A stretch of 64,000 bases of DNA from Octopus vulgaris (taxonomy: Eukaryota): contig OX597815.1 of NCBI GenBank assembly GCA_951406725.2, positions 114,018,001 to 114,082,000 on the forward strand. Direction: 5' to 3'. The position numbers and the translations under genes were made by a program. The notes under the pieces were generated by a model that was not told the DNA's origin, ran no database searches, and saw nothing but the letters and a program-made list of their open reading frames with translations. This document shows, piece after piece, positions 25,001 through 28,000 of the stretch (position 1 is the stretch's first letter; the number at the start of each line of letters is the position of its first letter).

Positions 25001-28000
25001 AGATAAGCACAATTCTCTCGCTCCCTACTTAATGCAGAACATACTGTTATTGTTTAGCTTTTGGTCAGCAAAAGCTGAAAGCAAAAGTGTTGCTACCACG
25101 ATGGTCCCACTTTCTTCCCCAAGTACAGTGTATCGAGAATATATTTAATATGTCCTGGTTTTAAAACAGTAAAGTGTGATTTGAGGAAGATTTGATTGCT
25201 ATTTTTTGTGGGTTGAATTATTGCATAGATTCCTCATTGGGTCAATTTGGAAAGCATTAAAATAAGTAATTCTGAAATGTTTTAAAGAGACCACAAAGTG
25301 AAAAAGGAAAATGAATGGATTTTTTTTTTTTCTTTTTTTTTTTTTTTTGGCAATCCACCAACATAAAGCAAGATAAAACTTATCAAAAGGATTTAGAACA
25401 TGAAGCTAAATCTGAAACTGCAAGCAACACAGTGAAAGCCTGAGAAAATTTTAAAGCCACATTACATTGTTGCTAGATTAAGTCAAGCTAATAAAGAAGC
25501 CTCCATGTGGTTGCTCAAGCTACTAGAAAAAAAAAAAATAACAACCAAATCTCTCTTAAACTACACCCTACAATATTAGAAAAGGCATGCTGGAAAATAT
25601 GGCAGTGGGTTCCTTGATACAAGAGAAAGGCAGAATAGTCATGGCTAGAATGGATTTAACCAAAAGGCTACTTAATCAAGGCTCACCTGGTAATCAACAA
25701 TGACAACAACAATGAAATGAAACCACTATGCAAATGAAAGCAACTTAGCACTAGTTATGAGAAAAGATGAGCAAGAAAACATTGTTCAAGATGAAGCAAT
25801 CAATATCTTATACAGAAATGTAAAGTGAGATGATTTAACCCAAGTAAAAACAGTCGTATTCATATTTAGGCATACTGAGTAAATCACATTCACACACAAT
25901 CTGAACAGTATTGAACGGTGGATCAATAGCAAAGCTGTTTGAAGACTAGAAAAAAGATCTTACTGCTACCTCAAATGGGGAATTCACTAAGAAATCTCCA
26001 AAGTCACGTTTTGTACATGAAGACGCTTTTTCTTTATGAATGGTCATCTGGTATTGTTTGAATATATTGTAAGAATCTTCATATGAATACTTGAACTCTG
26101 TGGAGGCAGGACTAGTCAGAACCAGCTTAATCTATGCATGCCAATCCAAGGAGGTGGGAACATATGAAAAAGAATAGACAATGTAAAAACAGTTATTACC
26201 TTAAGGATCAATGGAGAGTCCACAAGGAAGCAGGTAAATTGCTTAACATTGGGTTTCTCAGGAGAATCATTATGCACATTTGTTTGGTAATTATAGTACA
26301 CCTGATGGCTTTCTTTAAATGTGGAGTTGAAGGCTGAACATTTAGGTTTTGATCGTATTAGCCTTATCTGAAAGAACAATTTGTGTGTGAAGATATGATA
26401 TTAACCGTTGTTGGACTATAAGTGACAGGTAAGTCAGTGGTCACTATGTCTTCAGGGAGGAAAATAATGGCACAGTCCACAAGACAAAGGATAGCGACAA
26501 CATTTAACCCTTGGATGACCAAATTTCTAATGAAGTACAATGTCATTACTTTCAATCAGTTTTGAAAATAATTAAGAATTTAGTGTGATTCAGTAAAATA
26601 ACTAATTACGTCATTTTTAAATTGGTGTTTAGAACATAGAAGTTCTTACACAAAATCATGGGAAGTGTTACCTTAACTATAAATAACAGGAGGTATTGTA
26701 ACATAGAAACGGGTAGTTTCAGGTGGGAAGGTATTAAAAAAGTAAAGGAGATTCAGGATGTGCTGCTCATGGACCTATAACTTTGCATACAGTGAGATAT
26801 TTTATTTTCATCAGGCACTTTCACTGTAGTTTATCAGAAAATACACAACTTCAATGGCCAAATAGAACTTGATGCTATTACCAATTTAGTATTGAGCAGT
26901 CATTAGTGAAATGGAAATTTAACCATTAACCCTTAACTGTAGAAAGCAGTTTTATATACCAATCTATATTTTGTTGAGGAATGTCATGTTTGAAACTGCT
27001 TTTTATTGAAATATGTCAAGTTTATTGAGACAATGTGACATGCGGAAAATACCAATTCTATTTTCTGATAGATATTTTACATCATTAAAGAAATAACCAA
27101 GAAATTTAATTTTGCAGTTAAAGGATTAAAAGCAAACACCCTAGTTACATAAATAGGGAAAACAGAAAATATCAGCAGAAAAACATAAATTCAGTTCAAA
27201 TTCATCCAGGATTAAGAAAAATGGTGAGATTGAATATCAAGTCAAATAAGTTATTTTTAAAATCAATACTTGTCATATTATGGTTGGCTCAACAAAATAA
27301 TGTAATAAGAAGATTACTCTAGAAACGAATTTTTACTTCAAGTGCACATAAAATTTTAAAAATTGTCTGATCATAATTTACCTCAAGTTTGTGAGCAACA
27401 TTTGGTTGTTGGGCAGGTTCATCAAGAAGTTCCTCAAGAGTTTTAGGTTGATTTTGATTTTTAGATGGTAGCTGAAGTAGAATATAGAAACAAAGCTGCA
27501 CGGACAAAGAAGCAATGGAAATGGTTTCATCACAAGATGAAGCCAAAGTCAATGACACAATAAAGCAAGTGTAAACAGAAAACTCATCTTTCAGTTTCTA
27601 CAAGAAGCTTTTTGGTAGCTTACTGTTTAGTGCAGGAAATTTCTTGTAAGAAATCTATCAGTTCAAAGCCCATCACAAACATCACTATGTGATCTACATA
27701 TATTTTTATTATCTCAGTGAATCTAGCTTAAAATGAGGGCACTCCAGTAACAGAAGTCAATAAAGGAGTCTTTACGTAGTTGCTAGATATGCAAGAAACA
27801 GCCAATTCTAGCACAACTCATGCCCTGATCTTACAAACAAATGTGATGATCAAAGCTGGAATGTCTGTGATCATGAACCCATTTCCTTTTTTTCTCAAAC
27901 TTTCTAAACAATTAGAGGTTTCAAATGCTCATAATTAACTCTGTAATATCACTAACTCTGATGCTACAATTTTAAAAATAACATCTGTTAATGCTCCATG

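Follow-up and report, generated by a model that had tools for sequence, protein, structure and literature searches.

The window, by which we mean the whole 64,000-nucleotide stretch of Octopus vulgaris contig OX597815.1 analyzed here, holds the arginyltransferase gene ATE1 on the minus strand, laid out in ten exon slots from initiation codon to stop codon (Table 1). In a peptide map, four RefSeq isoforms of Octopus sinensis match these ten slots exactly, and an ATG at 35936 in coding exon 2 corresponds to the start of the 447-aa X4 isoform. The sixth slot holds two exons, designated 6A and 6B; the isoforms built with one or the other score about 83 bits against Pfam ATE_N and 147 to 150 bits against ATE_C, above the curated cut-offs for both. 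A tblastn search of the window disclosed no third copy of exon 6, and a genome-wide search via exon 7 for a second ATE1 locus gave a single match (1/4 candidates).

Table 1. Exons of ATE1 and the intron separating the two exon 6 copies, in window coordinates
Feature	Position	Strand	Remarks	Evidence
Coding exon 1	43561..43651	(-)	ATG at 43651	RefSeq isoform peptide map, splice ends
Coding exon 2	35875..35938	(-)		RefSeq isoform map, splice ends
Coding exon 3	32958..33262	(-)		RefSeq isoform map, splice ends
Coding exon 4	29667..29806	(-)		RefSeq map; joint 27471/29667 in 4/4 runs
Coding exon 5	27382..27471	(-)	ends HKLE, phase-0 donor	RefSeq map, joints
Exon 6A	26200..26367	(-)	168 nt, 56 aa	RefSeq X1/X4; both flanking joints in 4/4 runs
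6A-6B intron	26132..26199	(-)	68 nt	motif scan
Exon 6B	25970..26131	(-)	162 nt, 54 aa	RefSeq isoforms, Logan proteins
Coding exon 7	21820..22001	(-)	common acceptor for 6A and 6B	RefSeq map, joints
Coding exon 8	20716..20815	(-)		RefSeq map, joints
Coding exon 9	20489..20606	(-)		RefSeq map, joints, splice ends
Coding exon 10	18837..19015	(-)	contains the stop codon, at 18837	RefSeq map, splice ends

Elsewhere in the window, exon-like frames of a neighboring gene lie on the plus strand between 51505 and 59682, of which 59491-59682 matches Transket_pyr; we take this gene to resemble the branched-chain keto acid dehydrogenase E1 beta subunit. Intron 1 of ATE1 contains a 250-codon frame (36282-37031, minus strand) with a weak RVT_1 match below the cut-off, likely a retroelement fragment, and pieces similar to it occur near 7339-7623 and 38420-38923. 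Two further frames, 30332-30904 and 61065-61376, are presumably DNA-transposon fragments; the two pieces tested from these frames had no Pfam match.

The initial annotation had read exon 6 as a tandem duplicate and proposed a homologous, alternatively used pair equivalent to exons 7a and 7b of vertebrate ATE1, a reading that our analysis supports. Both 6A and the 6B frame from 26131 are stop-free, phase-0, and bounded by AG/GT, as had been noted, and the gapless alignment with 14/56 identical residues was reproduced; the ungapped BLOSUM62 score is 82 over 54 residues, a value reached by 0/100,000 shuffles (maximum 32). Each peptide alone matches Pfam ATE_C, below the curated cut-off, and human ATE1-2 (PDB 8tzv) at residues about 274 to 327. 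At the DNA level, 28/54 first, 32/54 second, and 15/54 third codon positions are identical, with third positions near saturation and first and second positions not, a pattern that fits the proposed old duplication with constraint at the protein level. Exon 6A is the upstream, Lys-Pro type copy and the counterpart of vertebrate 7a plus an 11-residue tail; 6B is the downstream, Cys-type copy. O. sinensis and O. bimaculoides differ by 0 residues in 6A or 6B and by 10 elsewhere, a weak comparison because few changes are expected. We consider it highly probable that the two are homologous coding exons arranged in tandem, likely used one per transcript, which give two complete isoforms that differ in a segment predicted to line the substrate pocket.

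Exon 6B had been described as hidden, but it is already contained in RefSeq proteins XP_029650750.1 and XP_029650759.1, and a search with its peptide matched one protein, RefSeq ATE1 isoform X2 of O. sinensis. For two Octopus species, RefSeq contains isoforms with 6A only and isoforms with 6B only; in the Octopus ATE1 protein cluster (eight members from O. sinensis, O. vulgaris, and O. bimaculoides), 6A alone is present in 4/8 and 6B alone in 4/8, with both in 0/8. The length of exactly 168 nt originally assigned to each exon stands for 6A but not for 6B, which is 162 nt long and ends at 25970, or else at 25967; similarly, the duplicated unit exceeds vertebrate exon 7 by the stated 39 nt for 6A and by 33 nt for 6B. 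The 25964 donor implied by a 168-nt 6B is used by none of the RefSeq isoforms X1 to X4 of O. sinensis and O. bimaculoides: 2/4 of the 6B isoforms end at 25970 (X3, 54 aa), 2/4 at 25967 (X2, 55 aa), and 0/4 at 25964, with the X3 and X2 ends the same in both species. The 25964 donor and the donor of the 162-nt exon score equally, with a 5/9 consensus match. Three transcript-derived Logan proteins from a close relative (P0012, P0013, and P0170) carry the B-type exon alone, 54 aa in length, with 36 to 38/54 residues identical to 6B and 17 to 18/54 identical to 6A; in a tree of the flanks, P0012 is placed with Octopus, where the three proteins group. The 168-nt form of 6B, supported by 0/4 annotated isoforms and by 0/3 B-type proteins of the close relative, was set aside, and we regard the exon as 162 nt long. 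In both Octopus species, RefSeq X2 has an extra Val after 6B (25967-25970, minus strand), with an implied GC donor that agrees with the consensus at only 2/9 positions. A 3-nt Val microexon for X2 was also considered, and a scan of the downstream intron gave one candidate, at 22309, with a poor and unconvincing GC donor.

Transcript evidence was drawn from assembled contigs, presumed to derive from RNA, of four runs from four studies, a type of data that cannot give expression levels. The two joints expected for 6A (27382>26367 and 26200>22001) are found in 4/4 runs together with three constitutive joints, and no joint of 6B appears among the 15 of 59 listed; of the junction pattern anticipated by the initial annotation, the 6A part is borne out. 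No 6A>6B joint (26200>26131) is present among the 15 of 59 joints listed for the contigs of these four runs. Intron 4 of ATE1 contains, at about 28690-28810, a very abundant repeat that matched thousands of transcript contigs and crowds the joint list. Contigs that cover 6B continue into the downstream intron at a depth of about 5 to 8, compared to 12 to 156 for the 6A joints, and hints of splicing or its absence come from one contig that stops at 26131 with 28 letters unplaced, another that ends at 26133, and one that spans 25905-26229 unspliced. Use of 6B rests on the RefSeq models of two species and on the B-only Logan proteins of the close relative, and we infer that 6A is the major and 6B the minor form in the sampled runs. 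That Octopus 6B is instead seldom used or in decay, with only the 6A isoform of consequence, is very improbable: its joints are missing among those listed, its contigs are of low depth and contain intron, its acceptor has the weakest pyrimidine tract in the gene (9/17, versus 11 to 15/17) and its donor matches the consensus at just 5/9 positions, but the frame is intact, the exon is identical in two Octopus species, B-only proteins are encoded by transcripts of the relative, and a B-type copy is retained across animals.

Predicted structures of the two isoforms share a strand (E229-235/237), a long helix (H241-260/261), a loop, and a short helix (H271-279), with pLDDT values of 88 to 97 over 6B and 93 to 98 over most of 6A. 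In a fold search carried out with the 6A model, human ATE1 (8tzv) was matched with an E value of 2e-45 and an rmsd of 1.5 Å; the 6B model has the same secondary-structure elements as the 6A model, and either exon completes the ATE1 fold in these predicted models. In human ATE1-2, Y298-Q299, I302-H303, D305, E314, R317, and F318 are located near the substrate, and the dimer interface includes D308-E309 (PMC11283454); by alignment, all of these positions map into 6A/6B. Both copies keep the invariant YQ..[IV]H core and differ at the positions around it; the two isoforms are therefore likely to be active enzymes, as predicted here, that differ in substrate preference or partner binding. A toggle of dimerization by 6A/6B through the contact formed in the human enzyme by E309 and K476/R477 was dropped for octopus, since these residues are not kept. 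In octopus, Glu/Gln stand in the place of the human dimer partners K476/R477, 6B has Ser rather than Asp/Glu at position YQ+11 (counted from the YQ of the core), and 6A has Cys at the R317 position; the dimer logic of the human enzyme is thus not directly transferable.

Since 6A and 6B are both in frame, a frameshift cannot enforce their mutual exclusion. In the 68-nt intron that separates them, a motif scan places candidate branch points 7, 16, and 35 nt into the intron, all within 35 nt of the 6A donor, no AG ahead of the acceptor, and a pyrimidine tract shifted upstream. A distance of ~50 nt is used as the steric limit from donor to branch point (PMC5740500, PMC7969005). The shortness of this intron and the proximity of all candidates to the 6A donor favor steric exclusion, which, judged from candidate branch motifs, is the most likely mechanism: the intron is predicted to be too cramped for removal, and 6A and 6B would not be joined. 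Exons 4a/4b of OGDH resemble the octopus pair in their short intron, near-donor branch candidates, and long AG-free zone, although the OGDH branch points were mapped by experiment and those of octopus are motif candidates (PMC7969005). Exon choice in human ATE1 is under the control of RNA structure, with R1 and R4 competing for R3 (PMC7797038), and a 20-nt direct repeat, 85% identical, found upstream of 6A (26721-26740) and of 6B (26152-26171) is reminiscent of such a selector pair. That competing base-pairing of this kind rather than intron size excludes one octopus exon is nonetheless unlikely, as the repeat core has no exact complement anywhere in the gene, and the strongest duplexes that the 68-nt intron can form with the flanking introns, at -18.7 and -23.9 kcal/mol, fall short of the means for shuffled sequences (-19.6 and -26.1 kcal/mol). 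The direct repeat itself may be left over from the duplication or may serve both exons as a regulatory element. With steric exclusion as the preferred reading for Octopus, database models of coral, vertebrate, and other molluscan proteins that contain both copies suggest that exclusion may be leaky outside this genus.

We then considered the distribution of the exon pair across animals, using 428 fetched proteins that contain the anchor motif. Seventy of these harbor two YQ-type motifs, and removal of three with a 14-residue spacing and two with a false upstream motif left 65 two-copy models, many of them near-duplicates. The spacing between copies is 43 residues in 44/65 models (11 coral, 1 hemichordate, and 32 vertebrate or vertebrate-like), 52 to 54 residues in 17/65 (molluscs, arthropods or arthropod-like), and irregular in 4/65. 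Isoform pairs from Ptychodera, Antedon, and Lytechinus differ over 40 to 43 residues, and those from Lineus, Lingula, Limulus, Penaeus, Schistocerca, and molluscs over 49 to 59 residues. The swapped unit is 43 aa in corals, hemichordates, echinoderms, and vertebrates and about 52 to 60 aa in protostomes; the larger unit that includes F..FL..SP, first proposed for octopus, is confirmed and common to all named protostomes examined. In Montipora and Acropora, there are forms with A alone, with B alone, with both copies, and with neither, and the omission of exactly the 11-residue tail from one model indicates the vertebrate 43+43+11 layout in corals. Ephydatia and sponge-like proteins have a single copy, and both K and D/E occur at YQ+11 in the sponge-like single copies. 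In the two-copy models, this position is K/R in 63/65 upstream copies and D/E in 63/65 downstream copies, with exceptions that include primate 7a and Octopus 6B. The position of human R317 is Arg in 15/16 protostome upstream copies (Octopus has Cys), 0/16 downstream copies, and 24/24 of the shared tails examined; with the longer protostome unit, this substrate-pocket position falls inside the switch. Two observations concern the gene as a whole. In Ptychodera flava, a single contig carries two near-identical ATE1 models (P0130-P0132, P0052), both of which include the exon pair and which represent a tandem gene copy or an assembly duplicate. Lingula (P0157/P0059) has two homologous alternative N termini like those of vertebrate exons 1a/1b (compare rabbit P0061/P0094), and none of this kind is annotated among the eight Octopus proteins.

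The resemblance of 6A to the upstream vertebrate exon, suggested in the initial annotation, is confirmed by mean BLOSUM scores of 96.5 to upstream and 54.3 to downstream vertebrate exons, compared to 41 for 6A with its own partner copy; 6B scores alike to both vertebrate types (73.2 upstream and 69.2 downstream), and the Cys noted there as shared with the other vertebrate exon is kept in it. The A copies of molluscs and brachiopods likewise score 98 against vertebrate A and 59 against their own B. In an order test on 25 hand-picked ordered pairs from six lineages, which are not fully independent, upstream copies resemble upstream copies in 14/15 lineage pairs, and the true order ranks 1 of 32 label flips; when the two diagnostic columns are removed, the rank is still 1 of 32, with 12/15 lineage pairs, and the weakest signal comes from corals. 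AU tests on 43 columns are compatible with a grouping of all upstream copies (p-AU 0.39) and with protostome A and B as one group (p-AU 0.25), and disfavor a duplication restricted to Octopus (p-AU 0.049), to spiralians (0.0145), or to vertebrates (0.0485), with two of these three rejections borderline. The exon-level free tree does not cleanly split A from B: it contains two label changes, recovers a single split in 0% of bootstrap trees, and groups coral A with coral and deuterostome B (support 95/88); a 77-row tree that includes single-copy sequences is mostly without resolution.

Because upstream and downstream copies sort alike over six lineages, we favor, with somewhat better than even confidence, a single duplication older than the cnidarian-bilaterian split, with later growth of the protostome unit to about 54 residues from an original 43. 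The main cost of one origin is to explain how the protostome upstream copy gained a tail of its own. This cost is avoided if the pair arose separately in protostomes, through loss of the intron before the 11-residue exon, duplication of the fused 54-residue exon, and convergence on the basic/acidic difference; we regard such an origin as a serious possibility, though one with distinctly less than an even chance. It is the simpler account of the shifted 3' boundary, which divides cleanly by lineage (43 aa versus about 52 to 60 aa), and it is compatible with the p-AU of 0.25 for the protostome grouping, with the fly Ate1 event given as "same region, convergent" (PMC9741552, supplement S5), and with sponge-like single copies in which both YQ+11 states occur, and are thus easily reached. 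The order concordance (14/15 lineage pairs, rank 1 of 32) and the greater similarity of mollusc and brachiopod A to vertebrate A than to their own B argue against it; the concordance is not decisive, as chance agreement in order would be 0.25 to 0.5 with just two to three independent events. Starting from the favored single origin, a more specific scenario can be put forward tentatively, at a little under an even chance: the switch predates the cnidarian-bilaterian split, its order and the basic/acidic loop residue were kept from coral to human, and the boundary shift in protostomes made R317, an Arg that is invariant in corals and deuterostomes, isoform specific, which would yield a second arginyltransferase that lacks this Arg and differs in substrate choice.

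For octopus, the event had been annotated and published before. ATE1 is event 21 in Martinez Gomez et al. 2021, one of those said to have equivalent exons "in common octopus, for example," and the internal event is dated there to Bilateria (PMC8373072); the octopus pair described here is that very event, in the same group of animals. Their criterion is identical splice sites, whereas the actual 3' site differs between protostomes and deuterostomes: octopus and vertebrate exon 7 pairs have the same 5' splice site, and the 3' site lies 11 to 13 codons further in octopus. The octopus and vertebrate pairs (PMC7797038) share the gene, the 5' boundary after H.LE, phase 0, an in-frame relationship, and the order of a Lys-type copy upstream and a Cys-type copy downstream. 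They differ in that the octopus unit is 56/54 aa compared to 43 aa, takes in 11 residues common to both vertebrate isoforms, and has a 68-nt intervening intron in which no docking/selector pairing was found. The vertebrate isoforms differ in localization and Liat1 binding, and a homolog of 7b is said in the same source (PMC7797038) to be absent in invertebrates, a statement that the octopus and other invertebrate data contradict. Corals are not mentioned in the available text on the ATE1 event in PMC8373072, and literature searches, mostly at the level of listings, returned no report of a coral ATE1 exon pair or of the 43-versus-54 boundary. The coral pair and the boundary shift are the sole part of this work with some novelty; the octopus event itself adds little, and the comparative side result is of modest weight. 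With the coral pair, a splice event so far placed in Bilateria may go back to the ancestor shared with corals. Finally, at the positions of human E309 and R317 the swap follows exon order in a conserved manner, and point mutants could therefore directly test how 7a and 7b differ.
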